Of a stretch of 64,000 nucleotides of DNA, positions 2,870 through 50,483 are shown one piece after another. Positions within the stretch are counted from its first letter, which is position 1, and each line of letters starts with the position of its first letter. The notes below the pieces were generated by a model, which saw only the letters and a program-made list of their open reading frames with translations, did not search any database and had not been told where the DNA came from. The stretch is from NCBI GenBank assembly GCA_964541235.1, contig CAZIPI010000014.1:666-64665 (forward strand), written 5' to 3'. The stretch comes from an uncultured bacterium (GTDB lineage Bacteria > Fermentibacterota > Fermentibacteria > Fermentibacterales > JCC-6). A program made the translations under genes and the position numbers.

Positions 2870-3706
2870 TCAGGGAAGGCAGACGAGCCTGATCGGCGGC
2901 ATCCCGGAGCCTCCGGCCAATCGTGCCAGATAGACCCCCGCAGCCGGAGGAGCGAACAGCCCCGAGCCGGAGGAAACATCCAGGCTCTGCACCTTTCTGC
3001 CTGAGATGTCGAACACCTCAAGAACCCCCTCGGAAGGGATCCCTTGCACCGAGATGATGACGCTTCCCGAAAAGGGGTTCCTGTCGGGGATGATGGCCGG
3101 GGCGGGGATCGCGTCGTGGGACTGGCCTTCCGTTCCGGTCTCATCGTACTGGAGTTCGGCCCAGTCCCACCAGGCGGTGGTCTCCCCGGCGGCAAGACCC
3201 CACTCACCCTCCCGGACGTCCGCGGAAGAGCTTGCCGCGAGAAGCCAGGTCTGGGAGGACTGAACATGCTCGATGCTGAGCAGCATATCGGGGCCCTGGC
3301 AGGTGAACACCAGCAGGTATTCGCCCGCGGGGAAGTCGGTGTAGAGCGAGCTGAAAATGGTTGACGTGGTACCATTGCTGACCCGTCTTATCCTGGCGAC
3401 GTTGTGGTCCACTGAAATGTAGGCGTAAACTCCCGTGTTCAGGTTGTCCAGCCTTGCAACGACTCCGAAAGTGTGGTTCCCGCTCCCGAAAACGCTTATC
3501 ACCCCGTCCTGTGTGGTGGGATTACCGGGGAACACCAGAGCGCTGCATGTCCTGGAGGTCTGGCAGAAAGCCATTCCGTTGCTGGGGTACCAGTTCGCTG
3601 TTCCGCAACGGGCCGTCCATCCGCCAAGCCCATCGGAGAAGTCATCGAAGAGGGTGGCGGAAAGGGCGACAGACACTGCCAGCAAAGTGCCGTATGCGCT
3701 TCTCAT
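2870..3706 (-). CDS. Secreted DUF1080/LamG-like domain protein with Por/T9SS-type C-terminal sorting domain
   Basis: Signal peptide MRSAYGTLLAVSVALSATL (ATG at 3706; the ORF extends to 3766). FDDFSDGLGGW is typical of DUF1080-like jelly-roll domains. C-terminal ...VFDISGRKVQSLDV...GVYLARL...IRLVCLP resembles a T9SS CTD. Confidence 0.6.
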   Translation of the reverse strand: MRSAYGTLLAVSVALSATLFDDFSDGLGGWTARCGTANWYPSNGMAFCQTSRTCSALVFPGNPTTQDGVISVFGSGNHTFGVVARLDNLNTGVYAYISVDHNVARIRRVSNGTTSTIFSSLYTDFPAGEYLLVFTCQGPDMLLSIEHVQSSQTWLLAASSSADVREGEWGLAAGETTAWWDWAELQYDETGTEGQSHDAIPAPAIIPDRNPFSGSVIISVQGIPSEGVLEVFDISGRKVQSLDVSSGSGLFAPPAAGVYLARLAGGSGMPPIRLVCLP

Positions 3707-3810
3707 CTCTTTCCTGCCCTTCTGTAAATCCATACATGGAACAATAATGTGCATTTGCGCTTTCAAAACATGGTATAGCCTCTTGTAGCAGGGGCGTCAA
3801 GTTCCCCGGC

Positions 3811-4668: not shown

Positions 4669-6573
4669 ATGAGGGAGACCTGGGGAAGCAGACGGGCCTT
4701 CATTCTGGCCGCTATCGGAAGCGCCATAGGGCTCGGGAACATCTGGAGATTTCCGTACGTGGCGTACGCCAACGGGGGAGGCGCCTTCCTGGTGGCCTAC
4801 TTCGCATGCCTCTTCATCGCGGGCATTCCCGTTATGATGCTTGAGTTCGGCCTTGGGCACAGGTACAGGCAGGCGGCTCCGGGGGCTTTCCGAAGCATCA
4901 GGCCCTCGCTGGAGTGGTTCGGATGGATGGCCGCCCTTCTTTCCTTCGTGATCGTGGTGTACTACGCCATAATCATGACATGGTGCGTGAACTACACCTA
5001 CGAGGCCGCAACCCAGGGATGGAAGCAGGAACCGGGTCTTTATGCCGACCCATCCGTGGCCATCGCCCCCACCCTCCTGTCGGACATGGAGGTCCTTACC
5101 CCGGTGCCCGGCGAGCTTGCGGGGTCTCCCTTCGTCTCACCGGTGAGCGGCACTCCCGGTGTCGTGCGATCCGAGCCCACATCAATCGTGATGCACCAGG
5201 GATGCGCCTACGGCTTCCCAACCCGTGCGCAGGCAGAAGCCTTCGCCCGGCAGCCCTGCGTTGACGACCACTGCGTCCTGACCTCCGGAGAGGGCACGGG
5301 AACATCCGTACTCCCCCGGGTGCCGGCCGCGCTTCTGGGCCGACCCTACGTATCCCCTGTTGACGGTTCGTCCGGGGTGGTGATGAACATCTCCACCATC
5401 CTCGTTGCGTACGGGGGGCGTTTGTACGGTTTCGACAGCGTTGACGAGGCAAGCACTTTCATGGGGTCTCCCGGGGACTTCTTCTTCAACCGGTTCCTGG
5501 GCATCACCTCTTCTCCATGGGACATGGGAAGCTTCCGCTGGCCCCTTCTGATCGGCTTCATCATCTCGTGGGTCTGGATAATCGCAAGCATCTGGAAGGG
5601 CACGAAAACGGTGGGCAGGGTTGTTTACTACACCGTGATAATCCCCTGGGTGCTGCTTCTTGTATTCATCATCAGGGGGGTCACCCTGCCGGGGGCAGGC
5701 GCGGGGCTTGCCTACTACCTTACTCCGGAGTGGGGCCGGCTCCTCAGCGGCGACATCTGGCTTGCTGCGCTGACCCAGGTCTTCTTCAGTCTTAGCGTGG
5801 GCTTCGGGGTGATGATCGCCTACGGCAGCTTCCTGCCAAAAAAGGCAAACCTGGCCGGAAGCGCCTTCATCATCGGAATTGCCGACGCCCTGACCGCCTT
5901 CTGCGGAGGGCTGGCCGTTTTCAGCGCCCTGGGTTTCCAGGCGTCCAGGCTGGGGGTGCCCGTGAGCGAAGTGGTGAAATCTGGGCCGGGCCTGGCCTTC
6001 GTGGCGTACCCCCACATCATATCCAGCCTGCCGGGGGCGCCTGTTTTCGGCGTGCTCTTCTTCCTGATGCTTCTTACCCTGGCTGTGGATTCGGCGTTCA
6101 GCCTCGTTGAGGGCGTCACCGCATCCATCAAGGACAAATGGGGGCTCTCACACAGGCGGGTGAACCTGATGGTGGGCGGCGCCGCCTTCCTTCTGGGCCT
6201 TCCCATGCTGTCAGGGGCCGGGCTTCACATCCTCGACATAGTTGACCACTTCATGAACAACATCTCCCTGGCGCTGGTGGTCCTGGGCCAGATCCTCATC
6301 GTCGGCTGGTTCCTGCCTGCGGAGAAGATGAGAACCTACATCAACGCCAACTCCGGGATCCGAACAGGCCTCTGGTGGAACACCAGCGTCCGCTGGATCA
6401 TACCCTTGGGCATGCTGTGGATGCTGGCGTCGGAGATCAGGGCCAGAACCGCGGGCGCATACGGCAGCTTCGAACTGCGGAGCCAGGAGTTCCTTCTGGG
6501 GTGGCTTGTTGTGATGCTCCTGCCGGTGGTGGGAGACCTGCTGGCATCGGGCAAAGGGAGCTGGAAGGACTAG
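4669..6573 (+). CDS. Neurotransmitter:sodium symporter (NSS/SNF) family transporter with a ~170-aa insertion after TM3
   Basis: Hallmark N-terminus WGSRRAFILAAIGSAIGLGNIWRFPY. Multi-TM throughout. An internal duplicated module lies at aa 145-196 and 217-268. Confidence 0.9.
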   Translation: MRETWGSRRAFILAAIGSAIGLGNIWRFPYVAYANGGGAFLVAYFACLFIAGIPVMMLEFGLGHRYRQAAPGAFRSIRPSLEWFGWMAALLSFVIVVYYAIIMTWCVNYTYEAATQGWKQEPGLYADPSVAIAPTLLSDMEVLTPVPGELAGSPFVSPVSGTPGVVRSEPTSIVMHQGCAYGFPTRAQAEAFARQPCVDDHCVLTSGEGTGTSVLPRVPAALLGRPYVSPVDGSSGVVMNISTILVAYGGRLYGFDSVDEASTFMGSPGDFFFNRFLGITSSPWDMGSFRWPLLIGFIISWVWIIASIWKGTKTVGRVVYYTVIIPWVLLLVFIIRGVTLPGAGAGLAYYLTPEWGRLLSGDIWLAALTQVFFSLSVGFGVMIAYGSFLPKKANLAGSAFIIGIADALTAFCGGLAVFSALGFQASRLGVPVSEVVKSGPGLAFVAYPHIISSLPGAPVFGVLFFLMLLTLAVDSAFSLVEGVTASIKDKWGLSHRRVNLMVGGAAFLLGLPMLSGAGLHILDIVDHFMNNISLALVVLGQILIVGWFLPAEKMRTYINANSGIRTGLWWNTSVRWIIPLGMLWMLASEIRARTAGAYGSFELRSQEFLLGWLVVMLLPVVGDLLASGKGSWKD

Positions 6574-7676
6574 TACCCCCCGAACGCAGGGCATGTGGAG
6601 CAATCCGAGGCGAAGCATTCCAGGTCGGGACGGATGTAGAAACTGAAGCCGGAATCGGGATCGCACCTGTACCCGAACCCGCTCATGTACTGGTAAACTA
6701 TGCCCGCCCTTTCCTGATCGTAGGGCTCATACCCCACGGCGAACAGCCTGAACCTGCGGGCTTCCGCTTGTTCAACGGCATGTTCCTGCCAGGGGGAAAG
6801 CACCGCCTCCGATCTGTGATCGAACCACCAGGGACCTATCACTCCGGCCAGTTCCGGTATCCTTTCCAGCGCTTCAAGCCAGTCCGAAGTGTCGGCGCTC
6901 ACCACATAGAGCGGCGGCATTGCCGCCCCGGCAAGGTCGCGAGCCATGTCCGTTCCCCTGTCGCCCGGCATCCCGGGGAAAGTGAGCAGGTAGATGGTGT
7001 CCTGGTCCATGGCGCTCCATACGCCTGGCTGGCCGGGGGATTCCACCAGCCTGGGGTCGGAGGGGGCTGCGTAGAATGCCGCCAGTCCCCGGATGCCAAT
7101 GACCATGAAGTACACCGCCACAAACACAGCAAGTACCCGTGCAACGCCGGTGAACCACCTCTTTGCGGTGAAGAGCCCGGCAATGGAGAGGGGAAGCATG
7201 TAAACGGTGGTGCCGAAGAAGAACCCAGCGAAGAGAAGCGCCCCGTTCAGCGCCCCTCCCGCATCGAACGCGCTTGTCAGGGCGATGAGGAAAGCGGGAC
7301 ACAGCGAGAAGCCGGTGAATATCCCCAGCAGGAACGGGCTTCCCGTGAACTTCATCCACTTGGATACCTGACAGCCGCCGCATTTCCTGTTCACCCTCAG
7401 GGTGCTCACCAGCAGGAACACGCTGAAGAGGATGTAACCCGCATAGGAAAGGGGTATCCTTACACGGCTGGGTATCCCGCCTCCGAGGAAGCCGATGAGC
7501 GCCCCGAAGCAGACGTAGGCGGCGAACCTTCCCAGGTTCAGGGTGAGCAGGACAAGAAGCGACTGCTTCCCGGTCCTCTTCTCGCTGAACAGGTACGCCG
7601 CATAGACAGGCCCGCATGACGCCAGGCAGGAAACCCCTGTGGCAAGCCCAAGGCTCAGCCCCTCAACAAGGCCCAC
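6570..7676 (-). CDS. DsbD_2/TauE-like integral membrane protein (C-x3-CGP motif) fused to a ~170-aa C-terminal soluble domain ending in CxxxxCxxCP
   Basis: N-terminus GLATGVSCLASCGPV followed by about 6 hydrophobic helices and a CGGC motif. The C-terminus is ...DLECFASDCSTCPAFGGY*. It is the last gene of the minus-strand operon. Confidence 0.55.
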   Translation of the reverse strand: MGLVEGLSLGLATGVSCLASCGPVYAAYLFSEKRTGKQSLLVLLTLNLGRFAAYVCFGALIGFLGGGIPSRVRIPLSYAGYILFSVFLLVSTLRVNRKCGGCQVSKWMKFTGSPFLLGIFTGFSLCPAFLIALTSAFDAGGALNGALLFAGFFFGTTVYMLPLSIAGLFTAKRWFTGVARVLAVFVAVYFMVIGIRGLAAFYAAPSDPRLVESPGQPGVWSAMDQDTIYLLTFPGMPGDRGTDMARDLAGAAMPPLYVVSADTSDWLEALERIPELAGVIGPWWFDHRSEAVLSPWQEHAVEQAEARRFRLFAVGYEPYDQERAGIVYQYMSGFGYRCDPDSGFSFYIRPDLECFASDCSTCPAFGGY

Positions 7677-7700
7677 TGTCTCCCCTTTCCCTGATGCCGG

Positions 7701-8906
7701 CTAAAGATGAGCCGCGGGATGGAAGGCAAGCCCTCCCTGGATGGAGTTCCAGGTCTCGGTGTACTCCAGCTCGGATGCCTGACGGCGAAGAACGATCCAC
7801 CCGGTGAACCCGTTCTTCATCCTGTACTCCAGGCCTCCCCCGTAGCTTTCGCGCCTTCTTGTTCCGCCGGTTCCCGGGATGCTGCTGGGGCCCTCCCAGA
7901 TCCTGCCGCTCACAAGGACCGAGAGCCCCCGGTAAACGCCGACCCTGGTCTCGAGCTCACCGAAGCGGGTGCTTATGAAACTCTCGGTGCCCTGCCCGTA
8001 AAGGCTCACGCTGGAGGGATGGTCGCCCCATCCCGCGAAAGCGAGCCTGAGCCGGCCGCCGGCCTGGAATGCCGCCAGACGGGTCTGGTCCTGGTCGAAA
8101 TCGAGCGTCTGGCAAACCGTGAAGTTGAAGGTCAGGTTGCGGGCAAGGGTCTGCACCGCCCTTAGTCTGGCGGTGGCCCTGTCCGGAAGGGAAGACCCGT
8201 TGTGGTCGTCTCCGCTCATGACCGAAAAGGCAAGGTCGGCCATCACCTGGGTACGTGTGGGAAGCCTGCGCGGCGCCAGGGAAGCGGCAAGGTCGACCCG
8301 GCCGTAGGTCTCGTCGAAGCCTGTTCCTTCGATGCTGGTGTTGTGGCTCACTCCGCTGACACCGATGTCTATTCCCAGAGGAGTGTACCAGACCGCTCCG
8401 CCCCCTGCCCTGGTCTCGGCCCAGGAAAGGTCCTGTTGGTCCTGGTCTGAAACGCTCCTGTTCCAGAGGCGGCCGAAGGCATTGAGCCTCACGGTGCCCG
8501 GAACTCCCCACTGAACATGGAGCCCGGGTCTCAGGGTGTTGTCTCGGACGGCGACGCCTTCCGAGCGGGGCAGCACCACGGCAGCGCTGTCAATGTCCGC
8601 TGTGAAACGGAAGTCGGGCCGCACAGTGAACCCGCCCTGACTGTAGTTCAGGGATACGGTGGTCTCGGACCGGTGGGTGGAGAACCTTGGAAGCGCGGCG
8701 TCATCACCGGAGGCCTTCCTGTAGGTCTGTTCCAGCTGGAACCGCCACGGCCCCTGAAAGAGCCTTACCCCGGCGGAGGCGTCAAGATAGGCCCCGCCGC
8801 CGTAGTTCACGCTGTCGTCGTTCACGGCTATCCTGGCGTACTCCTCGATGCCGAGGCCCATGCAGCAGGCGAACGCCCAGAACAGGAGAAGCATCGCTGT
8901 CTTCAT
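7701..8906 (-). CDS. Predicted outer-membrane beta-barrel protein (unknown family)
   Basis: Signal peptide MKTAMLLLFWAFACC (ATG 8906 overlaps the upstream stop). Composition is rich in alternating hydrophobic/polar residues and in Gly, Tyr, Arg and Asp, with no long hydrophobic helices after the signal peptide. Confidence 0.5.
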   Translation of the reverse strand: MKTAMLLLFWAFACCMGLGIEEYARIAVNDDSVNYGGGAYLDASAGVRLFQGPWRFQLEQTYRKASGDDAALPRFSTHRSETTVSLNYSQGGFTVRPDFRFTADIDSAAVVLPRSEGVAVRDNTLRPGLHVQWGVPGTVRLNAFGRLWNRSVSDQDQQDLSWAETRAGGGAVWYTPLGIDIGVSGVSHNTSIEGTGFDETYGRVDLAASLAPRRLPTRTQVMADLAFSVMSGDDHNGSSLPDRATARLRAVQTLARNLTFNFTVCQTLDFDQDQTRLAAFQAGGRLRLAFAGWGDHPSSVSLYGQGTESFISTRFGELETRVGVYRGLSVLVSGRIWEGPSSIPGTGGTRRRESYGGGLEYRMKNGFTGWIVLRRQASELEYTETWNSIQGGLAFHPAAHL

Positions 8907-9148
8907 CAGTACACCGCTCCCTTCGGGCATATCTCCACGCAGCGGTAGCAGAGGCGGCAGAGGCTTGGGTTGATCACGGCGTCGCCGTCAATCACCTCGA
9001 TGGCGTTGTAGGGGCAGACCTTCTCGCACTCGCCGCAGCCGATGCAGAGGTCGTTGTCCACCACCAGACCGGTGTTCTCGGTGGGGGGCGCGCAGGCGAA
9101 GAGAAGCATTGCGGCCGCCAGCAGAACCGTCTCAGTGAATCGCGTCAT
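8906..9148 (-). CDS. Small lipobox-bearing 2x[4Fe-4S] ferredoxin-domain protein
   Basis: MTRFTETVLLAAAMLLFAC (lipobox-like), then CIGCGECEKVCP and CRLCYRCVEICP. Confidence 0.7.
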   Translation of the reverse strand: MTRFTETVLLAAAMLLFACAPPTENTGLVVDNDLCIGCGECEKVCPYNAIEVIDGDAVINPSLCRLCYRCVEICPKGAVY

Positions 9149-9362
9149 ATGTGCATACCCCCTGGCAGAGCCCGCAGCCGATGCACTTCTCGGGGTCGAT
9201 CCTGGACTTGCCGTTCTCGATCTCGATGGCGTTCACCGGGCACACCCTTGAGCAGTCTCCGCACCCCGAGCAGTTGTCGGGCTCGACCCAGTACCTCACG
9301 GAGCCAAGGGCCAGGGCCGCCGCAAGGCACATCAGAAGGAACATCCCCCCCCGGATGCGCAT
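9132..9362 (-). CDS. Small signal-peptide-bearing 2x[4Fe-4S] ferredoxin-domain protein
   Basis: MRIRGGMFLLMCLAAALALG, then CSGCGDCSRVCP and CIGCGLCQGVC. Confidence 0.7.
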   Translation of the reverse strand: MRIRGGMFLLMCLAAALALGSVRYWVEPDNCSGCGDCSRVCPVNAIEIENGKSRIDPEKCIGCGLCQGVCTYDAIH

Positions 9363-9781
9363 CAGTACACCTCGAATTCCCCGGTTATGTGTGTTTCCTC
9401 ATCCCCGTTCACACCGTAGATGGCCACATTGCCCGATCCCACCGTCACTATTGCGTCCATGGGGCAAGATGCAACGCACGCTCCGCAGAGAATGCACTTT
9501 TCCGGATCTATCCATGCCTTGTTGTCCTCGGTCATGCTTATGGCATCCACGGGGCATGAGCTTATGCAGATCCTGCAGCCGATGCACGCGCCGGGGTCAA
9601 CGATGTAGTCCTCGTTCAGCTCCACCGAGCAGTGCTCCAAGGAGAGTTCTGCAAGCACCCGTCCGAATGCGATCACCCTCAAACCCTCGAAGTCACCCTC
9701 CACCGGCTGCCATGAAATGGTGAATAGCCCCGCGGCGGCCACGGCGGCAAGTGCGGGAACGATCAGCAGGAGTTTCTTCAT
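9362..9781 (-). CDS. Signal-peptide-bearing 2x[4Fe-4S] ferredoxin-domain protein
   Basis: MKKLLLIVPALAAVAAAG, then CIGCRICISSCP and CILCGACVASCP. The stop overlaps the next start. Confidence 0.7.
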   Translation of the reverse strand: MKKLLLIVPALAAVAAAGLFTISWQPVEGDFEGLRVIAFGRVLAELSLEHCSVELNEDYIVDPGACIGCRICISSCPVDAISMTEDNKAWIDPEKCILCGACVASCPMDAIVTVGSGNVAIYGVNGDEETHITGEFEVY

Positions 9782-9805
9782 TGTCCATCCTTTCGGCTCA
9801 TGGCA

Positions 9806-10777
9806 CTAGCTGCCGGGAGGGGGAGGAGGAACGTCAGGAAGAACCCCCGAGGGCAGCACCAGCCTTCTCACGGCATTGTTATGGGGATAATACTCATCCG
9901 GATTGATAACGCTGTTGTAGTTCCAGCACTCCAGGAAGCACTGGCCGCAGTTCACGCACAGGTCGGGATTGATGTAGACCTGGAAAGACTTCCCGTAAAC
10001 ATTCTCAAGGTCCTGCCAGATGGCGTCGTAGGGGCAGAGAGGGCCGGTGTAGACACCCCCGCTGGTAAAATCGTTGAGGAGCGAGCAGCCCGATACGCAT
10101 GTACCGGTGGAATCAGGCGCCGAGGGGGGACAGCGGAGACAGCCGCCGAACTGGGGCACCTGCTTGATGAAGTGTACCATGTACATGGCCCTGGATGAGA
10201 CCTGTATGTCGTCGGACGCCTGGTTCTCGCCGAAGAACGCCCTCACCCCCACATAGTAGTCCCGGCCCAGCCGGCCCCCGTCTATGGCCTTCACGGGGCA
10301 GGCGTCAATGCACAGGCCGCAGCTTCCGCAGAGGTCCTGGTCGATCACCGCCACCCCGTTCTGTATGGTTATGGCCCCCACCGGGCAGGCCCTTTCACAA
10401 AGGCCGCAGCCGATGCAGGCCTCGGGGATGACCTGGGGTTGAAGGAACACCAGGGCCGACTCGGCGGGCGCGGGTATCTGGCCGGCGACGATGGCGCTGT
10501 TCCAGTTCTCGAGGGTTATGGGAGTGGTGGAGAGCCTTGCCTGATACCATACGGCGCCCGGAACCGGCGAGAACCGCACCGTGAACGCCTTCAGCTCCCC
10601 CCCGTCAACCCAGGGGAGCAGCGCCGCCAGCTCCGGTGACATTGCGGTGTAGCCCGAGTCAACAAGAAGCGCGCCGGACTGGAGCACGGTGGGAGAGGTA
10701 GGCCTGGGGGATTCGGTGAGGCAGGCGGCCAGTACCGCCAGCGCCGCGGCCAGGGCGACAAACGTTCCTTTGAGCAT
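9806..10777 (-). CDS. Lipoprotein with 2x[4Fe-4S] ferredoxin domain plus additional Cys-cluster motifs
   Basis: GGAGGG RBS and ATG 10777 (the ORF extends to TTG 10798). MLKGTFVALAAALAVLAAC is a lipobox. Motifs: CIGCGLCERACP, CGSCGLCIDACP, CLRCPP...C..GC, CPYDAI, CVNCGQCFLEC. Confidence 0.7.
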   Translation of the reverse strand: MLKGTFVALAAALAVLAACLTESPRPTSPTVLQSGALLVDSGYTAMSPELAALLPWVDGGELKAFTVRFSPVPGAVWYQARLSTTPITLENWNSAIVAGQIPAPAESALVFLQPQVIPEACIGCGLCERACPVGAITIQNGVAVIDQDLCGSCGLCIDACPVKAIDGGRLGRDYYVGVRAFFGENQASDDIQVSSRAMYMVHFIKQVPQFGGCLRCPPSAPDSTGTCVSGCSLLNDFTSGGVYTGPLCPYDAIWQDLENVYGKSFQVYINPDLCVNCGQCFLECWNYNSVINPDEYYPHNNAVRRLVLPSGVLPDVPPPPPGS

Positions 10778-10832: not shown

Positions 10833-11285
10833 GTGGTTCGTGTTCCATGGGGGAACTCGAACTGCCGTACTATCGCACCGTTTCCATTCGGAGGCAAGGT
10901 TTCTGGAAACTGCGTCTCCGCGGGGATGAAGGGAGTTGCCGTGATGATCGCTCTTGACCCCTGCATTACAAGGAAGAAGCTGTTCGACGGCGATGGGGAG
11001 GCCCTGATAGAGAGCCTCTTCGACCCGGGCGACTTCACCGCCAGGGTCAGGCTGTGCGCCCGCATCACGCTCCCCGCGGGAGCCTCAATCGGCTACCACG
11101 TTCACCGGGATGAGGATGAGATCTACTACATACTCTCGGGCTCCGGGCAGGTCTCGGACGGAGTTGGAACACATCCCGTCGGCCCCGGCAGCGCCATACT
11201 CACAAGGAGCGGAGAGGGGCACGGGCTGGCCAACAGCGGAGAAGGGGACCTCGTTCTTCTGGCAGTGATCCCGTTGCACGGCTGA
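10833..11285 (+). CDS. Cupin-domain protein
   Basis: [23 protein letters not shown]...GEGHGL is a cupin_2 signature. The true start may be ATG 10926 (MKGVAVM). Confidence 0.6.
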
Positions 11286-11355: not shown

Positions 11356-12675
11356 TCACTGGAGCACGAGCAGTTTGCCCGAGGCAAGCTCTCCGTCACA
11401 GACGATACCGTAGAAGTACACCCCGGAAGGCAGCCCTCCGGCGTCCATTCTCACGGTGTGGCTTCCGGACCCCAGGGTGCCCTCGTGCAGTGAGGAAACC
11501 CTTCTGCCTGTGCAGTCGTAGATGGCAAGTGTGACATCCGCCGGTACTGTGAGATCGAAGGTTATCCCGATCCCGCCAGTGGGTTCGACTCGACCGCTGT
11601 GACTTCCCAGCACCGCCGGCCGATCCAGAGGCAGGCGCTCACCTCCGTCGCATCCTCCCCATTTGTGGTGCATGGCTGAGCACAGGAAGTCAATGGCGAT
11701 GGGGAACCTCTCGGTAAGCTTGTCGAAGTGCCCCCCCACGAATACCTGATACTCGTAGTCTATTCCCATCACGTCCAGGGAACACGCGAAGGCGTTGGAG
11801 CTGGGAAGGATGTAGAACTGGTCCTGGGTGCCGGCATCGAAGTAGATCCTGCCGTCATGTCTCCAGGGAGGGCTCGCCAGGTTCTGAACAAGGTTGGGCA
11901 TGTTGTGCTGCATCCAGAGCGCCCAGACCTCGGGAACCAGCTGGGCATAAGGGTCCAGCGGCAGGTCCACGTAGAAGGGCGGGTTGGCCAGATTCGGCGA
12001 GAACGCCCCGGACATGCTGAAGAGGACCGCGTTGGCGAACCCGGCGCTGGGGGTGTAGAACCAGGGGGGGCCCTGCTGGCCCATGGCCTGCAGCTCTGCC
12101 AGCACTCCGTAAACGTTTATCGCGAGCATGCTGGGAAGATCGAGGCCGCTGGCGCATACCCCCGCCGCACAGCAGTAAAGGTCAGGATGCTGGCCGTAGT
12201 ACATCAGCGCCCCGTACCCGCCCATGGAATGGCCCATGAGGGCACGCTTCATCCTGCTGGGAATGGTTCTGAAGTTGGCGTCCGTCCATGCGATGAGGTC
12301 GGTGGACATGTAGCCTTCCAGATCGCCGTACAGGGCCGAGCTGGTGTAGAAGGAGGCCGGGTAGGGGGATGAGAACCCATCCGGTCTCACTACGATGACC
12401 GGTTTGATCTGGTGTGTCTCGATCATCTCGTCCAGTGCTGCCACCAGCGTGGGAAACTCGTTGTGGCCCAGAAGAATGCCGGCGCCGTGGAAGTAGTAGA
12501 TAACGGGGTACCTTCCCCCTCCCCGGGGCTGATAGCCCTCGGGAAGGTACACCTGCACGTTCTTCTCCTGACCCAGCGCCGGGCTGTAGAAGGAAGTGTT
12601 CAGCACGGTCCCCCCCGCGAACGCCTCCCATGGAAGTGCCAGAAGAAGAAGTGCCGCCATCATCAGCCTGTACAT
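11356..12675 (-). CDS. Secreted alpha/beta-hydrolase esterase (esterase D/'putative esterase' family) with T9SS-type C-terminal domain
   Basis: Signal peptide MYRLMMAALLLLALPWEAFA (ATG 12675). YPVIYYFHG and GHSMGGYGAL form the nucleophile elbow. C-terminal ...YDCTGRRVSSLHEG...LPSGVYFYGIV...KLLVLQ. Confidence 0.75.
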   Translation of the reverse strand: MYRLMMAALLLLALPWEAFAGGTVLNTSFYSPALGQEKNVQVYLPEGYQPRGGGRYPVIYYFHGAGILLGHNEFPTLVAALDEMIETHQIKPVIVVRPDGFSSPYPASFYTSSALYGDLEGYMSTDLIAWTDANFRTIPSRMKRALMGHSMGGYGALMYYGQHPDLYCCAAGVCASGLDLPSMLAINVYGVLAELQAMGQQGPPWFYTPSAGFANAVLFSMSGAFSPNLANPPFYVDLPLDPYAQLVPEVWALWMQHNMPNLVQNLASPPWRHDGRIYFDAGTQDQFYILPSSNAFACSLDVMGIDYEYQVFVGGHFDKLTERFPIAIDFLCSAMHHKWGGCDGGERLPLDRPAVLGSHSGRVEPTGGIGITFDLTVPADVTLAIYDCTGRRVSSLHEGTLGSGSHTVRMDAGGLPSGVYFYGIVCDGELASGKLLVLQ

Positions 12676-13094
12676 TTCTGTACACCCCTCTCCCGCATTG
12701 CCGCTACAACCGGTGTTTCCGGTGTTCCGGCAGAACCGGCACCAGAACGCCCGGAGGGTGAAGCGGGAGACAAGGGAGTTGGAGGAAACTCTCCAAGCCT
12801 GTTGCCGACACTGCCGACAGCAGCCCACGCGTGTGTATATATGCCGGTGTAAGTGTTGTCAATGGCATGGGAATATGAAATGTTAGTGCAATACTTCTTT
12901 ACATATACATTTGATAGTGAATAATAGTACCGTATTTATTGCTTGTATAAACATGGCTGTAACAATCTATATATCTATGCATATGATGCATAATATACTA
13001 TTGATGTTGCCGCTGATAATGCCGGGTACCCCCGCATACTCCACAGGCTTAACATTGATTTCAGCCAATGCGTGGTTATAGTAACCCCTCCGGC

Positions 13095-13184
13095 GGAGGG
13101 GTGCCGGAGCGGTTGAACGGGACGGTCTCGAAAACCGTTGACTCCTTTCGGGGTCCGTGGGTTCGAATCCCACCCCCTCCGCCA
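13095..13184 (+). tRNA. tRNA-Ser (anticodon CGA), encoded CCA end
   Basis: Acceptor GGAGGGG/CCCCTCC. Anticodon stem ACGGT/ACCGT with loop CTCGAAA. Long variable arm. T-arm GGGTTCGAATCCC. 3' GCCA. Confidence 0.9.
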
Positions 13185-13545: not shown

Positions 13546-15081
13546 CTACCGCGCAACCACCATGCGGGCGTTGCGCGAGCTTCCCCCGGAGGTTACCCTG
13601 ACGGTATAGACGCCTATGGGAAGGGAAGAGGCGTCCACCGAAACCTGGTTCTCGCCGGGGGTGAGGAGCAGTGTCTCCCTCCGGACGGACCTGCCGGCTA
13701 TGTCGAAGACATGAAGGACCGCCTGGGCCTGAGCCTGCGCCTGCACCCTCACTACCGCCGAGGCGGACACCGGGTTGGGGGAGACGCTGAGGGCCGCACC
13801 GCTGAACACCGGAGTGCTGGCTCCACCGGCTATGCCGGTGCCCACCGGGTTCGCAAGATAGGCCACGGTTGCGATGGATGCCTTGGCCATGTTGGTGCCG
13901 AAGGGGAAGTACTGGAGGTAGTTGGCCATGAGGTCGGAGGTCTGGTGGTAGTAGGGGTTGCTGAAGACCTGACGTTCGATGTTGAGCATGGCCGCATAAC
14001 CGTTGTACCAGAAGCTGGCGTGATCGCTGGCGCTGGAGGGGCTGGATGCCACCTGCTTCACAAGGGCGGGCACATATGTGTCGCTTATGGCCTGGAAGGC
14101 CACGCCCAGACCGGAGGAGGCGGTGTTGTAGTGAAGCCATGCGATGTCGTTCCCCGCCGGGCCGTAGAATATCATGTCAAGGTTCACCACGCCCATGATG
14201 CTGTCGCCTGCCGCCGATGCCTGTGAAGCGTAGTAGGCGCTTCCGTAGAGGCCCTGTTCCTCGCCTCCGAACAGCATGTACTTCACGGTGTACTCGAACT
14301 GGTACTGGCTCATAATCCTCGCGGCTTCGATAACGGCCGCGGAGCCGCTGCCGTTGTCGTCCGCGCCCGGAGCGTCGTAGTAGGGGTTGGGCGAGGTGCT
14401 GTCGAGGTGGCCGCATATCACCCAGTACCGGTTGGGGTAAAGGGTTCCGGTCTGGGTGGCTATGACGTTCTGGCAGGTGTAGCTGCTCATGGGGAAGGGC
14501 TGTATCACTGTTTCAAGGCCCATGGCGTTGAACCTGTCCTGGCTCCAGGCGCAGGCGGTGTCGAAACCGTCGGAGTTCGAATGCCTTGTAAGGTAGTTCT
14601 GGTAGTTGGTGGTGTAGGAGATCAGTGAATCCTGGTTCACCGCCTCCACTATGTCCGCCACCATTCCGTCGTAACCGCTTCTCATGGGGATGGGGATGGG
14701 GTCGGCCGGGGCCCTGGTCTCGCGCAGGGGCTGGACATGATGGATCCCGGGGCGAACGAAGGGGTCGGGCACCGGCCTGTGAAGCCTGACTATCACGGAG
14801 TGGCCGTCGCGGTAAACCGGCTCGCCTATGGCGGAAATGTCATCCAGCCCGCTTTCGTTCCTGATGGTGACCAGGGCGTAGTCGGAGATACCGGCTGCAC
14901 CCGTGTCAAGGAGCCTGGAACCGTCCGTGGCGGACCCGAGGGCCACCACGTGATCGCTGGCCCTGTAAACCACCACATACCCGGCATCGGCGGTCGCTGA
15001 GCCGTCGGGAATGATAAAAAGCCCTGCGGCCTGAGCATTTACAGCAATGAGAAGTGCCGTGAGAATACATGCAGTCTTCAT
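13546..15081 (-). CDS. Secreted M28-family aminopeptidase with T9SS-type C-terminal domain
   Basis: Signal peptide MKTACILTALLIAVNAQA. GHLDS...GADDNGSGSAAVIEAARI is an M28 zinc-ligand motif. C-terminal ...VFDIAGRSVRRE...LPIGVYTVRV. Confidence 0.8.
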   Translation of the reverse strand: MKTACILTALLIAVNAQAAGLFIIPDGSATADAGYVVVYRASDHVVALGSATDGSRLLDTGAAGISDYALVTIRNESGLDDISAIGEPVYRDGHSVIVRLHRPVPDPFVRPGIHHVQPLRETRAPADPIPIPMRSGYDGMVADIVEAVNQDSLISYTTNYQNYLTRHSNSDGFDTACAWSQDRFNAMGLETVIQPFPMSSYTCQNVIATQTGTLYPNRYWVICGHLDSTSPNPYYDAPGADDNGSGSAAVIEAARIMSQYQFEYTVKYMLFGGEEQGLYGSAYYASQASAAGDSIMGVVNLDMIFYGPAGNDIAWLHYNTASSGLGVAFQAISDTYVPALVKQVASSPSSASDHASFWYNGYAAMLNIERQVFSNPYYHQTSDLMANYLQYFPFGTNMAKASIATVAYLANPVGTGIAGGASTPVFSGAALSVSPNPVSASAVVRVQAQAQAQAVLHVFDIAGRSVRRETLLLTPGENQVSVDASSLPIGVYTVRVTSGGSSRNARMVVAR

Positions 15082-15916: not shown

Positions 15917-16896
15917 TCCGCGCCTTCCGGCAGCCCGTGCTCGAGGATGGACCTGATGATGTCCTCGATGGGGGCGCAGGGCGAGAAGCCCAGAAGATGC
16001 CTGAGAAGGGAAACGTCGGGAACCCTGCGCTGCATGTCCTCGAAGTCTCCCGGGTAAGCCTCGTCGTAGGGAGTGAGTTCAATCGCCGACTGTGAGCCGG
16101 TGATCTCCAGCACCCTTCTCGCCAGCTCCAGGATGGTTATCTCCTGCACCGAGCCGATGTTTATCACCTTGCCCACCGCCTCGGGGGCATCCATGAGCGC
16201 GATGACGCACCGGGTGACCTCATGCACCGAGCTGAAGCACCTTGTCTGGGTTCCGTTGCCGAAAACGGTGAGCGGCCGTCCAGTGAGCGCCTGGTTGATG
16301 AAGCGGGGAAGCACCATGCCGTACCTGCCGGACTGTCTTGGTCCCACTGTGTTGAACAGCCTGCCCACCACCACGGGAAGCCCCCTTGCCTTGTGGTAGG
16401 CCAGGGCCAGGAACTCGTCCAGCGCCTTGCTGCACGCGTAGCTCCAGCGGCTCCGGCTTGTGGCGCCCAATACTATGTCGCCGTCCTCCCTGAAGGGGGT
16501 CTCCCAGCTCTTGCCGTAAACCTCGCTGGTGGATGCCACGAATACCTTCGTTCCCCGTTCAGCGGCGGCTGACAGCACATTCTCGGTGCCGCCTATGTTT
16601 ATCTCGATGGTCTCCACCGGACGCCGAATGATGTTCTCCACCCCCACCGCTGCGGCGAGGTGGATCACCGCCCCGGATCGCCCCGCAAGGTCGCGGACCG
16701 TATCAGGCTCCATCACGGACCCCGTTTCCAGCCGGAACAGCGGGTTGCCGGAGAGGTGGGCCACATTCTTCAGGCTTCCCGTGGAGAGGTCGTCGAGCAC
16801 CAGGACGCTGCGCCCCCCCTCCACGATGGCTGTGCACAGGTGCGACCCGATGAAGCCGGCGCCCCCGGTGACCAGGAAGTCGTGCCGGGCGTTCAC
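15913..16896 (-). CDS. NAD-dependent sugar-nucleotide epimerase/dehydratase (extended SDR)
   Basis: VTGGAGFIGSHL Rossmann motif and YACSK (YxxxK). Confidence 0.8.
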   Translation of the reverse strand: MNARHDFLVTGGAGFIGSHLCTAIVEGGRSVLVLDDLSTGSLKNVAHLSGNPLFRLETGSVMEPDTVRDLAGRSGAVIHLAAAVGVENIIRRPVETIEINIGGTENVLSAAAERGTKVFVASTSEVYGKSWETPFREDGDIVLGATSRSRWSYACSKALDEFLALAYHKARGLPVVVGRLFNTVGPRQSGRYGMVLPRFINQALTGRPLTVFGNGTQTRCFSSVHEVTRCVIALMDAPEAVGKVINIGSVQEITILELARRVLEITGSQSAIELTPYDEAYPGDFEDMQRRVPDVSLLRHLLGFSPCAPIEDIIRSILEHGLPEGAD

Positions 16897-18092
16897 TAGC
16901 GGCTCACCACGCTCAGCAGGACCCCTGCGGCAATGGCGCTTCCAATGACCCCGGCCACGTTGGGACCCATGGCGTGCATCAGAAGGTGGTTCTTCGGGTC
17001 GGCCCTGCGGCCCTCCATCTCAGCTACCCTGGCGGCCACCGGGACTGCGCTCACACCGGCGGCGCCCACCAGGGGGTTGATGCGGTTCCCGCCCTTAAGG
17101 AAGAGGTTCATGAACTTGGCGAACAGCACCCCGCCGGCGGTGGCTATGGCGAAGCTCACCACACCCATGGCGAAGATCTTCAGGGAGGACAGGGTGAGGA
17201 AGGTGCCGGCCAGGGTGGTGGTTCCAACACTGAACCCCAGAAGCACCACCACGATGTTGTTCAGCGGGCCCTGCGCCCCCTCGGCAAGCCTGCGGGTCAC
17301 GCCGCTCTCCTTGAGAAGGTTGCCGAAGAACAGCATTCCCAGCAGCGGGATGGCGCCGGGAACGATGAAGGCCGTAACGATGAAAGCCACGATGGGGAAG
17401 AGGATCTTCTCCTTCTGGCTCACGAGCCTTGCCGGCTTCATTCGAATTGCGCGTTCGGCGGGAGTGGTGAGCAGCCTCATGATGGGGGGCTGTATCACAG
17501 GGACCAGCCCCATGTATGAGTATGCGGCCAGGGCTATTGCCCCAAGGAGATGGGGCGCCATCTGGCTGGCCACGAAGATGGCCGTGGGGCCGTCGGCGCC
17601 GCCGATTATGCCTATGGCCGAGGCCTCGCTGAGGCTGAAGTCGAGGAAGAGGGAGCCTATCAGCGTGAGGAAAATGCCTATCTGCGCCGCGGCACCCAGC
17701 AGGAGCAGCTTCGGGTTGGAGAGCATGGCGCTGAAGTCGGTCATCGCCCCTATCCCCAGGAAGATCAGCGGCGGGAAGAGCCCGCTCTTCACTCCGAAGT
17801 AGATCAGGCTGAACACGGAGCCAGGCTCCTGGTAGCCAATGGGCATAAGGGCCGGGTTGTAGGGCATGTTCCCGGCTATCATGCCGAAGCCTATGGGGAT
17901 CAGGAGAAGGGGCTCGTACTCCCTCCTGATGGCCAGGTAAACGAAGACGAGACCCAGGGCGATCATCACCAGGTTGCCCCAGGTCACCTGGCCGAACCCG
18001 GTGTCCCTCAGGAAACCGGCGAAGCTTATCCCTTCCCGGTCACCGGCTAGAAGGCACTGGAGCGCGGAGGCGAGGGAGGAGGCTTGCGACAT
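16896..18092 (-). CDS. mmdB: Na+-translocating decarboxylase beta subunit (OadB/MmdB family)
   Basis: Polytopic membrane protein matching the OadB/GcdB/MmdB family end to end (NLVMIALGLVFVYLAIRREYEPLLLIPIGFG...). Confidence 0.9.
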   Translation of the reverse strand: MSQASSLASALQCLLAGDREGISFAGFLRDTGFGQVTWGNLVMIALGLVFVYLAIRREYEPLLLIPIGFGMIAGNMPYNPALMPIGYQEPGSVFSLIYFGVKSGLFPPLIFLGIGAMTDFSAMLSNPKLLLLGAAAQIGIFLTLIGSLFLDFSLSEASAIGIIGGADGPTAIFVASQMAPHLLGAIALAAYSYMGLVPVIQPPIMRLLTTPAERAIRMKPARLVSQKEKILFPIVAFIVTAFIVPGAIPLLGMLFFGNLLKESGVTRRLAEGAQGPLNNIVVVLLGFSVGTTTLAGTFLTLSSLKIFAMGVVSFAIATAGGVLFAKFMNLFLKGGNRINPLVGAAGVSAVPVAARVAEMEGRRADPKNHLLMHAMGPNVAGVIGSAIAAGVLLSVVSR

Positions 18093-18101
18093 GGGCCCCT
18101 C

Positions 18102-18539
18102 CTATCCTATGCTCATGATAAGGGCGTTTTCCAGCACTGTGTCGCCCTCGCTGACGGAGATCCGGGTTACCTGGCCGGCCAGCGGAGATTCGATCTCGTT
18201 CTCCATCTTCATGGCTTCCATGATGGCCACTATCTGGCCCTTCTCCACGGTATCCCCCTGCCTGACGAGTATCTTCAGCATGTTCCCCGGCAGCGGGGAG
18301 AGTATGTCGCCCTTGTTCCCGTGGCCCCCGGGCGCCGTGGTCCGGTCCGGTGACGCCGATGCGTCGTGCACCCTCTTCTCCCGGACGATGGTGGGTGTCT
18401 TGGCGGGCTTCCGGGAGGGCGATTCCACGGTGGCGGTGAAGGTCCTGTCGCCCAGCCGAACCTCGACCTGGTCGTCCTCAAGCCTGCCGATGCTGACGCT
18501 GTAGGTGTTTCCGCAGATGGTAACATTGTACTCGGGCAT
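18102..18539 (-). CDS. mmdC: Biotin carboxyl-carrier subunit of the decarboxylase
   Basis: Biotinylation motif EAMKMENEI. ATG 18539 overlaps the upstream stop (the ORF extension to 18677 is unlikely to be real). Confidence 0.85.
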   Translation of the reverse strand: MPEYNVTICGNTYSVSIGRLEDDQVEVRLGDRTFTATVESPSRKPAKTPTIVREKRVHDASASPDRTTAPGGHGNKGDILSPLPGNMLKILVRQGDTVEKGQIVAIMEAMKMENEIESPLAGQVTRISVSEGDTVLENALIMSIG

Positions 18540-18937
18540 CACACCCTCCTGTCCCTGAGCCTCAGGCTTGTACGGGCAAGAAGGGTCTTGGCCCTCCCCG
18601 CAAGCCGCCAGGGTGAGTAAGGTTTGTCGTGGTCCTGCCACGTGATCTTTCTTTCGCATTCCTGATCGAGCCGGCACAGGTGGGTGTGGATCGCCACCGC
18701 CACCGCGGCCACTTCCTCGGGGGTGAGGCTCTTCTGCGCATCCGGCGCCGCCTTCTTCAGAACAGGGAGGGGGCTTCCGGACTCGGCCGCTCTCCTGAGA
18801 AGGGGGAGCAGCAGCGCCAGCAGCGCCAGACCGGCGAACACGGCGGCGACCCCAAGAACGGTCACCTGAACCCCGTCGGGCAGCAGTGAGGCCCCGGAGG
18901 ACTGGACAAGCGCCGAAAGCAGTGCCGCCGCCATCAT
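18539..18937 (-). CDS. OadG-like small membrane subunit (decarboxylase gamma/delta)
   Basis: A single N-terminal TM ([23 protein letters not shown]) and an operon position between the carboxyltransferase and the BCCP. Confidence 0.6.
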
Positions 18938-20484
18938 AACGGTATGTTCCCGTGCTTCTTGGAGGGGATCTCCTGCCTCTTGCCCTGAAGCATCTCGAGG
19001 CTGCGGATTATCCTGAACCTTGTTTCCCCCGGCGTGATGACGGCATCAATGTAGCCCCGGGACGCTGCGTCGTAGGGGTTGGCGAACTTGTCGCGGTACT
19101 CCTGCACCAGCTCCGCCCTTCTGGCTTCGGGGTCTTCGGAGGCAGCCAGCTCGTTCCTGAAGATGACGTTCACCGCACCCTCGGGACCCATCACGGCGAT
19201 CTCGGCCGAGGGCCAGGCGTAGTTCACGTCGCTGCGGAGATGCTTGGAGGACATGACGTCGTAGGCTCCGCCGTAGGCCTTTCGAGTGATGACCGTGATC
19301 TTGGGCACTGTGGCCTCGGCGAACGCGTAGAGAAGTTTCGCGCCGTTCCTTATGATGCCGCCGTACTCCTGCTTGGTTCCCGGCATGAAGCCCGGAACGT
19401 CAACGAAGGTGACCAGTGGAATGTTGAAGGCATCGCAGAACCTTACGAAACGCGCGGCCTTCACCGAGGCGTCTATGTCCAGCACTCCCGCAAGGAAGCT
19501 GGGCTGGTTGGCCACCACCCCGACAGGCTTTCCGTTCATGCGCCCGAACCCGATGATGATGTTCTGGGCGTACGCCCTCTGTATCTCCAGGAACTCGCCA
19601 TGGTCAACGATGGCCGCAATGATCCTGCGCATGTCGTAGGGCTTGTTGGGATTCTCCGGAACGAAGTCTTCCAGCCATTCCTCGGCACGGTCGGGAGCGT
19701 CGCTGCAGGGTGTTGCTACCGGGTCCTCCATGTTGTTCTGCGGGATGTAGCTGAAAAGCTTCCTAACCAGAAGGAGGGCTTCCTTCTCGTCCTTGCACAC
19801 GATGTGGGAGACACCGCTTCTCTGGCTGTGCACGAAGGGGCCTCCAAGCTCGTCCTTCGTGACGTCCTCGCCGGTCACGGCCCGCACCACGTCAGGCCCG
19901 GTGACGAACATGTAGCTGGTGTTCTCCACCATTATGGTGAAGTCGGTTATTGCCGGGCTGTAAACGGCCCCTCCAGCGCACGGGCCGAGGATGACGCTGA
20001 TCTGCGGTATCACACCGGAGTAGAGGACGTTCTTCAGGAAGATGTCGCCGTAACCCGCCAGGCTCTCGATGCCCTCCTGTATCCTTGCGCCTCCGGAGTC
20101 GTTGAGGCCGATTAGGGGAGCGCCGTTCTGCGCGGCCAGGTCCATCACCTTCTTGATCTTCTCGGCGAAGGTCTCGGAGAGGGACCCCCCGAACACGGTG
20201 AAATCCTGGCTGAACACATAGACGAGCCTGCCGTCTATGGTGCCGTACCCGGTCACCACGCCGTCGCCGTAGTACTTCTGCTTTTCCAGGCCGAAGTTGG
20301 TTGACCGGTGGGTCTTCAGCTGGTCGAACTCCTCGAAGCTGCCGTCGTCCAGAAGTATCTCGAGCCTTTCCCTGGCGGTGAGGCTTCCCTGGGCGTGCTG
20401 TTTCGCGACCCTCTTCTCCCCGCCCCCCTGCAGCGCCAGTTCCCTGAGCTTCCGCAGCTTGCTGTTCCTGTCCGTTGAGCCCAT
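18934..20484 (-). CDS. mmdA: Methylmalonyl-CoA decarboxylase alpha subunit (acyl-CoA carboxyltransferase)
   Basis: Full-length match to the carboxyltransferase family ([18 protein letters not shown]..., [27 protein letters not shown]). Confidence 0.9.
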
Positions 20485-20503
20485 TCCTGAAGAACCCTTT
20501 CCG

Positions 20504-20905
20504 TCAGTGCTGGCAGAGTTCGGTGAGAACCCTGCCGCTGGCCCTGGGGTGAATGAAAGCTATCTTCGTGCCTCCGGCCCCGGGTCTTGGTGTTTTGTCT
20601 ATCATATTCACCCCGGCCCCGGTCAGCTCGACCACCGCCTGAGCGGCGTCGGAGACCGAGTAGGCGATATGGTGCACTCCCTGCCCCCGGGACTCGAGGA
20701 AGGCGGCCACGGGGCTGTCGGGGGATGTGGGCTCCAGAAGCTCTATCCTGGATTCGCCCACGGCGAACATGGCCACTCTGACCTTCTGGGAGGGAACTTC
20801 CTCGATCCCGATAAGCTCGAGCCCCAGCACGTCACGGTAGAAGGCCATGGACTCATCGAGGTTCTCCACCCCGATGCCTATGTGGTCGATCTTCTTGATC
20901 TTCAT
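20504..20905 (-). CDS. mce: Methylmalonyl-CoA epimerase (VOC/glyoxalase fold)
   Basis: [18 protein letters not shown]...GVHHIAY...IAFIHP. Confidence 0.85.
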
Positions 20906-21852: not shown

Positions 21853-21855
21853 ACG

Positions 21856-22257
21856 TCAGCTTCTGTTCTTCTGTTCGTTCTCGATGAATGAGATCACATC
21901 GGAGGCGGGCGTGCCGGGGGTGAAGATCGCCCTGAACCCCGCTTCCATGAGGCCCGGGATGTCCTCATCGGGTATGACGCCGCCGCCGAAGAGCACTATG
22001 TCCGGGGCGCCCTTCTCCCTGAGTATCCTGGCCACTTCAGGAAAGAGGTGGTTGTGGGCTCCGGAGAGAAGCGAGAGCCCCACGAAGTCAACATCCTCCT
22101 GAACCGCGGCATCGGCGATCGCCTGGGGGGTCTGCCTGATGCCGGTGTATATGACTTCCATTCCAGCGTCGCGGAGAGCCCTGGCGATGTACTTGGCCCC
22201 CCTGTCATGACCGTCCAGCCCGGGTTTGCCGATAAGAACCCTTATCCTGCGCTCCAT
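21856..22257 (-). CDS. Methylmalonyl-CoA mutase B12-binding (small) subunit
   Basis: [23 protein letters not shown] contains the DxHxxG cobalamin-binding motif. ATG 22257 is preceded by gaaagagg (the ORF extends to 22377). Confidence 0.85.
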
Positions 22258-22441
22258 GGATGCCTCTTTCCGGTTTTCCGGGAGCTTCCGCTCCAAAAGG
22301 TGGGTACGCCTATATTGCGTATCATCTTCAATTTCACCGTTTCTGTAAAGACAGCGCCCTTTCTCGGGCAGGTCCATGGAACAATATTACACAGGTGCTG
22401 TTACTCACTGAGCGTGCCACAGCAAAAGGAAAGGTATATCA

Positions 22442-35128: not shown

Positions 35129-35296
35129 TCAGGGGGCCTCTATGGCCTCCACCGGACAGACGGCGGCGCAGGCTCCGCAGTCGATGCAGGTAGCCGGGTC
35201 GATGGAGTACTTGTCTCCCTCGGATATGGCGTCAACGGGGCATTCGCTCATGCAGGCGCCACAGGCGATGCATGCGTCGGTGATCTTGTAGGCCAT
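35129..35296 (-). CDS. fdx: Clostridial-type 2x[4Fe-4S] ferredoxin (55 aa, cytoplasmic, no signal peptide)
   Basis: MAYKITDACIACGACMSECP...CIDCGACAAVCP. Confidence 0.85.
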   Translation of the reverse strand: MAYKITDACIACGACMSECPVDAISEGDKYSIDPATCIDCGACAAVCPVEAIEAP

Positions 35297-45775: not shown

Positions 45776-45792
45776 CGAAAGGTTCTCCGCTT

Positions 45793-50483
<4,691 letters not shown>

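Follow-up and report, generated by a model that had tools for sequence, protein, structure and literature searches.

To our knowledge, every established conduit for electrons across the outer membrane relies on multiheme cytochromes. A heme-free route that leads from the cytoplasmic side to periplasmic partners is known for Fer4_5 proteins (NapGH, MauMN, NosR), and proteins that bear iron-sulfur (Fe-S) clusters and work outside the cytoplasm are thought to need export as folded holo-proteins through the twin-arginine translocation (Tat) pathway. Here we describe a six-gene operon in a 64,000-nucleotide stretch of DNA from an uncultured bacterium of the Fermentibacteria (GenBank assembly GCA_964541235.1, contig CAZIPI010000014.1, positions 666 to 64,665 of the forward strand; the whole stretch is called the window below), which encodes four predicted exported ferredoxins (genes A to D), a predicted outer-membrane β-barrel (E) and an inner-membrane protein of the DsbD_2 type (F). 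A first-pass annotation had suggested that this operon might specify a porin-ferredoxin conduit or a periplasmic Fe-S relay. We put at about even the chance that its products form a heme-free, [4Fe-4S]-based extracytoplasmic electron path that starts at the inner membrane and extends as far as, and probably across, the outer membrane.

All six open reading frames (ORFs) are present on the minus strand, at exactly the coordinates first assigned to them. Gene A (9806-10777) encodes a lipoprotein polyferredoxin of 323 amino acids (aa), identified from its ORF and its matches to Fer4 families. ORF and Pfam evidence together predict that B (9362-9781) is a 139-aa exported ferredoxin, C (9132-9362) a minimal exported 2x[4Fe-4S] ferredoxin of 76 aa and D (8906-9148) an 80-aa lipoprotein 2x[4Fe-4S] ferredoxin. 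E (7701-8906) is a 401-aa orphan protein that carries a signal peptide and is predicted to form a 20-strand outer-membrane β-barrel, and F (6570-7676) is a 368-aa inner-membrane DsbD_2 protein. The close spacing reported for these genes is evident at all five junctions when they are read from the sequence, each being either an overlap or a gap of 24 nucleotides (nt): B/C and D/E overlap by 1 nt within TGATG, C and D overlap by 17 nt, the 24 nt between A and B include a purine-rich, ribosome-binding-like stretch (AAAGGA), and the 24-nt gap between E and F holds GGAAAGGGGAG. Homologues place the start of E at 8906 (MKT), a longer ORF start at 8930 being without homologue support. As read from these junctions, the layout of A to F is that of one translationally coupled operon. 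Pfam assigns Fer4 dicluster domains to each of A to D (E 1e-17 to 1e-18), with Fer4 and Fer4_7 above their cut-offs, and NCBIfam matches to the ferredoxins are sub-threshold, restricted to the core and spread over many ferredoxin-containing enzymes. A scan for sigma-70 promoters and terminators returned matches at or below chance, promoters of the type found in the Fibrobacteres-Chlorobi-Bacteroidetes (FCB) group lying outside the scan's models.

The gene order is a phylum-wide property. A survey in which one genome per GTDB species was scanned, and ORFs were classified with hidden Markov models built from five operons, yielded 57 species-level loci in Fermentibacteria, together with 13 loci in Fibrobacterota, Chitinispirillaceae, Chitinivibrionales and Coatesbacteria. 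The order A-B-C-D-E-F is kept in every one of the 57 Fermentibacteria loci that is long enough, with A sometimes duplicated, and the recurrence of the operon is far beyond chance; a related form is present in a second phylum. In their sources, homologues of F bear the names Candidatus Fermentibacteria, Fermentibacter, Sabulitectum or Aegiribacteria. The E family comprises 17 clusters at 90% identity, and a profile search of 1.84 billion proteins with E recovered 21 clusters only, whose members are all approximately 400 aa long or are pieces of proteins of that length. Full-length relatives of A form approximately 28 clusters, all from this operon type, and the matches that follow them are generic Fer4 cores. 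No homologue was found in a known cytoplasmic oxidoreductase, the full-length relatives of A, E and F being confined to this kind of operon. One published metagenome-assembled genome (L057, Candidatus Sabulitectum silens MJAN01000001.1) has F divided between two ORFs, of 214 and 150 aa, and additional A fragments ahead of the operon, a combination that could reflect either assembly frameshifts or real decay.

Inspection of the ferredoxin sequences bears on how many clusters the operon can carry. The CxxCxxCxxxC motif occurs three times in A and twice each in B, C and D, and a motif scan found the heme-binding motif CxxCH in none of the six proteins, as had been noted at the outset. A consists of a signal peptide, a domain of about 95 aa and two dicluster ferredoxin domains, of which the first is canonical (C121 to C160) and the second carries a long insertion (C213, C216, C231 and C248-P, followed by C274, C277, C280 and C284). 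Besides the lipobox Cys19, 16 cysteines of A are invariant in 30-46 homologues. In B a signal peptide is followed by a 2x[4Fe-4S] core with extensions on its N- and C-terminal sides, and seven of the eight cysteines are invariant and one is 88% conserved across 49 orthologues; in C all eight cysteines are invariant (47 sequences); and in D, where a linker of about 15 residues separates the lipobox cysteine from the first cluster motif, seven of the eight cluster cysteines are invariant and one is 98% conserved (46 sequences). The first-pass annotation had counted two motifs per protein and at least eight clusters; the dicluster domains in A to D stand, whereas the predicted total rises from eight to ten [4Fe-4S] clusters, because the 16 invariant cysteines of A correspond to four clusters. 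Overall, the cluster-motif cysteines of A to D are 88-100% conserved across about 46-51 species, the pattern of 2x[4Fe-4S] ferredoxins, and this near-invariance argues that the ten predicted Fe-S sites are occupied and functional. In the N-terminal domain of A, Pfam detected nothing across 30 members, and comparison of this domain with an FN3 array from Fibrobacterota gave an hhalign E of 0.086, which does not establish an FN3 fold.

At the N-terminus of each of A to E, in every species, a basic n-region precedes a hydrophobic core, so that the signal-peptide and lipobox N-termini first noted for the four ferredoxins are conserved export signals. Lipoproteins were recognized by [LVI][ASTVI][GAS]C at the end of the signal peptide, a pattern found in A (VLAAC) and D (LLFAC); Cys19 is invariant in 46 orthologues of each, and the corresponding regular expression matches 43 of 46 A sequences and 50 of 53 D sequences. 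B, C and E have type-I-like cleavage sites, the signal peptide of B being MKKLLLIVPALAAVAAAG and the N-terminus of C consisting of MRIRGG followed by a 14-residue hydrophobic core. By comparison, the separate cytoplasmic ferredoxin at 35129-35296 (minus strand), a 55-aa clostridial-type protein, lacks any N-terminal extension, as was originally remarked.

With a Tat signal defined as S/T-R-R-x-F-L-K in the n-region, the original statement that the operon lacks twin-arginine motifs holds for A to E in this window, where C has R-I-R, but not for the C family at large. Across 51 species, two basic residues keep their position in the n-region of C; the pair is RR in 15 (for example MSVRRLLLP and MTARRVLA), RK or KR in another 15, KK in 11 and RxR in eight, including this window. 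C-like ferredoxins of Fibrobacterota have canonical Tat motifs of the NRRxxLK kind, MNRRAILRLIAG (NRRAILR), RRRTILK and NRRSLLK. From these signals the C family looks ancestrally Tat-dependent, and the apparent paradox of Fe-S proteins exported by Sec and not by Tat is thus weaker than first stated. A TatA motif scan of the window and 76 loci (1.1 Mb of sequence) gave no match. Precursors with Sec-type signals could acquire their clusters either through relaxed Tat recognition or through F-aided periplasmic assembly in a sulfide- and iron-rich habitat.

The product of the fifth gene, first described as a signal-peptide protein of barrel-like composition, models as an outer-membrane barrel of approximately 20 strands. 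The AlphaFold2 model, computed from a shallow alignment of 17 sequences, has a signal helix followed by 20 β-strands, with a predicted local distance difference test score (pLDDT) of 70 and a predicted template modelling score (pTM) of 0.54. Homologues of E also show alternating, β-amphipathic hydrophobicity, with z-scores of 3.5-5.1 against values of at most 1.8 in eight control proteins. Searches of Pfam and NCBIfam returned nothing significant for E, the best match (Porin_4, E 0.034) falling below the cut-off, and a sequence search of the PDB matched neither E nor the protein that takes its position in Fibrobacterota. Our interpretation of E, held with moderate confidence, is an outer-membrane barrel with roughly 20 strands, and it does not extend to any specific relationship with MtrB.

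A further redox protein near the operon, an inner-membrane NapH/NosR-like protein of 452 aa at 1511-2869 on the plus strand, was missed in the first-pass annotation; it is a conserved neighbour and a probable partner. This polytopic protein matches Fer4_5 in Pfam (51.8 bits against a cut-off of 22) and scores below the family cut-offs for NapH/MauN (40.9 against 213) and NosR (57.8 against 1000), and by these matches it appears to share a domain class with NapH/MauN and NosR without being a member of either family. Its signal peptide is followed by three exported four-cysteine repeats and then by the membrane domain. The repeat has the form CPLxLxPxEAC-x3-SPRC-x10-RCDNPG, with PEPEPEP or acidic linkers between copies; in orthologues throughout Fermentibacteria the first copy directly follows the signal peptide, and the N-terminal CPLG is conserved. 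Every Fermentibacteria locus that extends far enough has an orthologue, convergent to the operon and 0.4-5.5 kb downstream of F, and the genes in between vary. Because Fer4_5 proteins are known to pass electrons to the periplasm, the 1511-2869 protein is, by analogy, the likeliest entry point for electrons.

A related operon occurs in seven metagenome-assembled genomes of Fibrobacterota, Chitinispirillaceae and Chitinivibrionales (L064, L065, L066, L068, L070, L071 and L075), with no cultured isolate among the matches. Its order is a Tat-signal ferredoxin, a lipoprotein ferredoxin, a signal-peptide protein of 414-456 aa and a DsbD_2 protein, and in total it encodes four small exported ferredoxins, one of them with a canonical Tat signal, and an FN3-rich lipoprotein that ends in a ferredoxin domain. 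The counterpart of A is an 828-aa lipoprotein in which five FN3 domains precede a dicluster ferredoxin domain. That a ferredoxin sits behind five FN3 domains in a lipoprotein, and that an orthologue bears a Tat signal, indicates that the Fe-S domains lie outside the cytoplasm. A NapH-NapG-like fusion follows the DsbD_2 gene on the same strand after 15-82 bp. The DsbD_2 protein is shorter than F, and a GntR-type regulator precedes the operon in two of the loci (L068 and L070). In the position of E, the 414-456-aa proteins have barrel-like hydrophobicity (z 3.1-4.2 for four of five proteins tested and 1.7 for the one from L066, against at most 1.8 in controls), and in most of them the last residue is Trp. 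Homology between these proteins and E was considered and rejected (hhalign probability 0.15%), which makes the two positional analogues only. The slot looks like a case of non-orthologous replacement, and the fact that a different barrel-like protein fills it suggests that an outer-membrane component is a required part of the system.

F belongs to the family to which it was originally assigned. Pfam places DsbD_2 at residues 7-191 (E 1e-21), spanning six helices, and across F and 108 homologues the cysteines are conserved in C17-x3-C21-G-P of the first transmembrane helix (TM1), C99-x-G-C102 of loop 3, C126-P of TM4 and a C-terminal C354-x4-C359-x2-C362, the C-terminal domain being flavodoxin-like α/β. 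Homologues in Fibrobacterota retain the cysteines of membrane and loop and do not have the terminal motif. A sequence search of the PDB with F gave only spurious matches to transmembrane helices (E around 0.005). The odd-numbered loops carry about 11 positive charges (Lys plus Arg) against about three on the opposite side, and by the positive-inside rule the CxxC loop would be cytoplasmic and the C-terminal domain periplasmic. With its six helices, its conserved cysteines in TM1 and TM4 (Cys-Pro), its membership in a Pfam family described as 'cytochrome c biogenesis transmembrane region' and its place in an operon of exported, cysteine-rich redox proteins, as CcdA is found with cytochromes, F resembles CcdA and DsbD. 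It differs from them in matching DsbD_2 and not the DsbD family proper, in possessing an additional TM1 CxxxC and a CxxC in the cytoplasmic loop, and in having a flavodoxin-like C-terminal domain in place of a thioredoxin-like partner domain; the combination of a membrane and a cytoplasmic cysteine pair also recalls MerT. On the strength of these resemblances we propose, with low confidence, that F plays a supporting role. Most likely it would act in maturation or support, and it could hold the cysteines of the exported ferredoxins, 8-16 in each, in reduced form much as CcdA does for apocytochromes; alternatively, it might pass a thiophilic metal or cluster along its membrane cysteines in a MerT-like relay.

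Taken together, these components can be arranged into a path. A cytoplasmic reductant would pass electrons to the NapH/NosR-like Fer4_5 protein, from which they could move to B and C, the soluble ferredoxins of the periplasm, and then to the lipid-anchored minimal ferredoxin D; the outer membrane would be crossed at the barrel E, a possible housing or docking site for a small ferredoxin, and electrons would finally reach the four-cluster lipoprotein A, possibly at the cell surface. Such a path might let the cell dispose of electrons from fermentation by passing them to an acceptor outside it, for example elemental sulfur (S0) or polysulfide, iron minerals, humic substances or a syntrophic partner. 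Of the initial proposal of a conduit or relay, the gene structure, the conserved Fe-S motifs, the export signals, the barrel fold and synteny in two phyla were recovered in silico, and from this anatomy we infer the crossing of electrons, the individual steps, their direction, the acceptor, the exposure of A and the part played by F.

The presence of an inner-membrane redox module near the operon in both phyla, at the loci with enough room, supports a path of this kind, and in published genome analyses the phylum Fermentibacteria is reported to lack respiratory genes (PMC5030696, PMC5763382). The first-pass annotation had named four outcomes that would refute its interpretation, namely cytoplasm-facing anchors, an E that does not model as a barrel, a gene order not kept in relatives and homologues in a known cytoplasmic oxidoreductase; on all four the results favoured the interpretation, which is thereby supported in part. 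Several points weigh against it. The export signals in this window look Sec-type, which leaves the entry of clusters into the proteins unexplained. No catalytic subunit or terminal reductase could be identified. The barrel model for E is of moderate quality (pLDDT 70 from 17 sequences), and its likeness to MtrB is a generic barrel similarity. Finally, [4Fe-4S] clusters of this type are oxygen-labile and of low potential, limiting where such a wire could work.

The best-surviving alternative, which we consider rather unlikely, is that the Fe-S relay stays within the periplasm, as in the NapGH, MauMN and NosR systems, and serves substrate reduction, repair or cofactor maturation, with E as a substrate entry channel. 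The inner-membrane partner does resemble NapH and NosR, its Fibrobacterota version is a NapH-NapG fusion, the known Fer4_5 systems end in the periplasm, and a barrel fold alone is no proof of electron transfer. Yet in neither phylum does the operon or its surroundings hold a gene for a periplasmic catalytic subunit; four to five different ferredoxins, two of them lipid-anchored and one joined to FN3 domains, exceed what a one-enzyme shuttle would need; and the barrel gene E is translationally coupled to D.

A bolder version of the outer-membrane path, which strikes us as unlikely, holds that an all-[4Fe-4S] wire is built from ferredoxins that, in lineages such as the one sampled here, have given up the twin-arginine motif and are exported unfolded by Sec, and that these gain their clusters with the help of F in a sulfidic, iron-rich periplasm. 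Were this correct, the operon would represent both the first extracytoplasmic route of Fe-S maturation and the first Fe-S outer-membrane conduit.

A purpose other than electron transfer is improbable: A to D would then be periplasmic carriers or stores of iron, sulfide or Fe-S clusters, with E importing a metal species and F moving it inward. F, with its DsbD_2/UreH-like fold, does have cysteines in TM1, TM4 and the cytoplasmic loop in a layout of the MerT metal-relay type, and the habitat is rich in iron sulfide (FeS) and sulfide (PMC5030696). Against this, the canonical 2x[4Fe-4S] electron-transfer folds with their conserved CP motif correspond to no known cluster carriers, the redox protein that invariably accompanies the operon, NapH/NosR-like or NapH-NapG, speaks for electrons, and the C-terminal cysteine motif of F is missing in Fibrobacterota. 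Least probable by far is that A to D are membrane-anchored ferredoxins facing the cytoplasm, as in RnfB, with N-out anchors as N-termini: their cores score weakly against RnfB and similar models, and RnfB proteins are the next matches to A after the operon-specific homologues, but these matches are limited to the generic Fer4 core, far below family cut-offs, Pfam found no PF04060 (FeS_rnfB) in A to D, no rnf genes were present in the neighbourhoods examined, and the invariant lipobox cysteines, basic n-regions, Tat motifs of homologues and FN3 fusion identify the N-termini as export signals that place the domains outside, on which evidence we rejected this reading.

The surroundings of the operon provide some genomic context. 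Divergent from A lies a gene for a Cupin_2/AraC-binding-like protein (10833-11285, plus strand), which also neighbours A in L001, L002 and L003 and is not found there in the more distant L004 and L005; since homologues are 114-117 aa long, its listed GTG start is probably too far upstream. On the other side, a 634-aa Na+ symporter of the SNF family (4669-6573, plus strand) converges on F, their stop codons overlapping at 6570-6573. An insertion of about 145 residues splits the two Pfam-matched parts of the symporter and contains two similar segments, ..FVSPVSGTPGVV..YGF.. and ..YVSPVDGSSGVV..YGF... Secreted proteins with signal peptides are encoded on the minus strand at 2870-3766, 11356-12828 and 13546-15081, and comprise an M28 peptidase, an esterase and a 298-aa protein; Pfam detects a type IX secretion C-terminal sorting domain in the M28 peptidase, and the tails of the other two look similar by eye. 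These features are consistent with a diderm organism of the FCB group.

Farther along, the minus-strand genes at 16896-22377 encode an oxaloacetate decarboxylase (OAD) β-subunit, a biotin carrier, a carboxyltransferase, MeaB and a B12-binding domain protein, a set typical of a Na+-pumping methylmalonyl-CoA/oxaloacetate decarboxylase with a B12-dependent mutase, which suggests a succinate/propionate pathway. The window also contains the chromosomal origin region: parB, parA, gidB, mnmG and mnmE (minus strand) and dnaA (43069-44412, plus strand) lie within 35350-44412, and the cumulative GC-skew minimum at 44001-46000 adjoins dnaA. The sole tRNA in the window is a tRNA-Ser (CGA) at 13095-13184 (plus strand).

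If electrons do leave the cell in this way, extracellular electron transfer would extend to presumed plain fermenters that are abundant in anaerobic digesters and sulfidic sediments, by means of a wire whose low potential would suit it to the reduction of sulfur or to electron transfer between species, and the operon would offer a concrete test case for Fe-S maturation outside the cytoplasm. The ferredoxin-plus-barrel system spans two cytochrome-poor, fermentative lineages of the FCB group, and the analysis assigns a context to three orphan families, namely the barrel E, the DsbD_2 subfamily of F and the exported four-cysteine repeats.

Literature searches found no description of a ferredoxin-barrel operon system, and each of the nearest known systems differs from it. 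Unlike MtrCAB, PioAB and Pcc, the operon has no hemes and distributes its [4Fe-4S] clusters over several small proteins in place of one decaheme cytochrome; E has about 20 predicted strands against 26 and is unrelated in sequence to MtrB and PioB. The operon therefore has neither the multiheme CxxCH proteins nor, by sequence, the MtrB/PioB-family barrel that define porin-cytochrome systems. In the extracellular dimethyl sulfoxide reductase of Shewanella (DmsEFAB), a [4Fe-4S] subunit, DmsB, does lie outside the outer membrane beside an MtrB-like barrel; the trans-membrane wire of that system is the decaheme cytochrome DmsE, and export proceeds by Tat and type II secretion, whereas the operon described here has neither heme nor molybdoenzyme. 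The nearest non-heme porin proposal is PcoAB, a hypothesised pair of a porin and a multicopper oxidase put forward from genomics alone (He et al. 2017, PMC5566968). It shares with our operon the combination of a non-heme redox protein and a porin, and differs in its copper cofactor, in its protein families, which show no homology, and in its occurrence in aerobic or microaerobic iron oxidisers (PMC5566968). With NapGH, MauMN and NosR the locus has in common a polytopic Fer4_5 protein and exported poly-[4Fe-4S] ferredoxins; all scores, however, stay under the cut-offs of the NapH, NapG and NosR families, a partner such as NapAB, MauAB or NosZ is missing, the ferredoxins in this window lack the RR pair, and an outer-membrane barrel, lipoprotein ferredoxins and a DsbD_2 protein are added. 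The operon may thus be viewed as a variation on the idea of a porin-associated conduit, assembled from parts of the NapG/NapH class and three orphan families.

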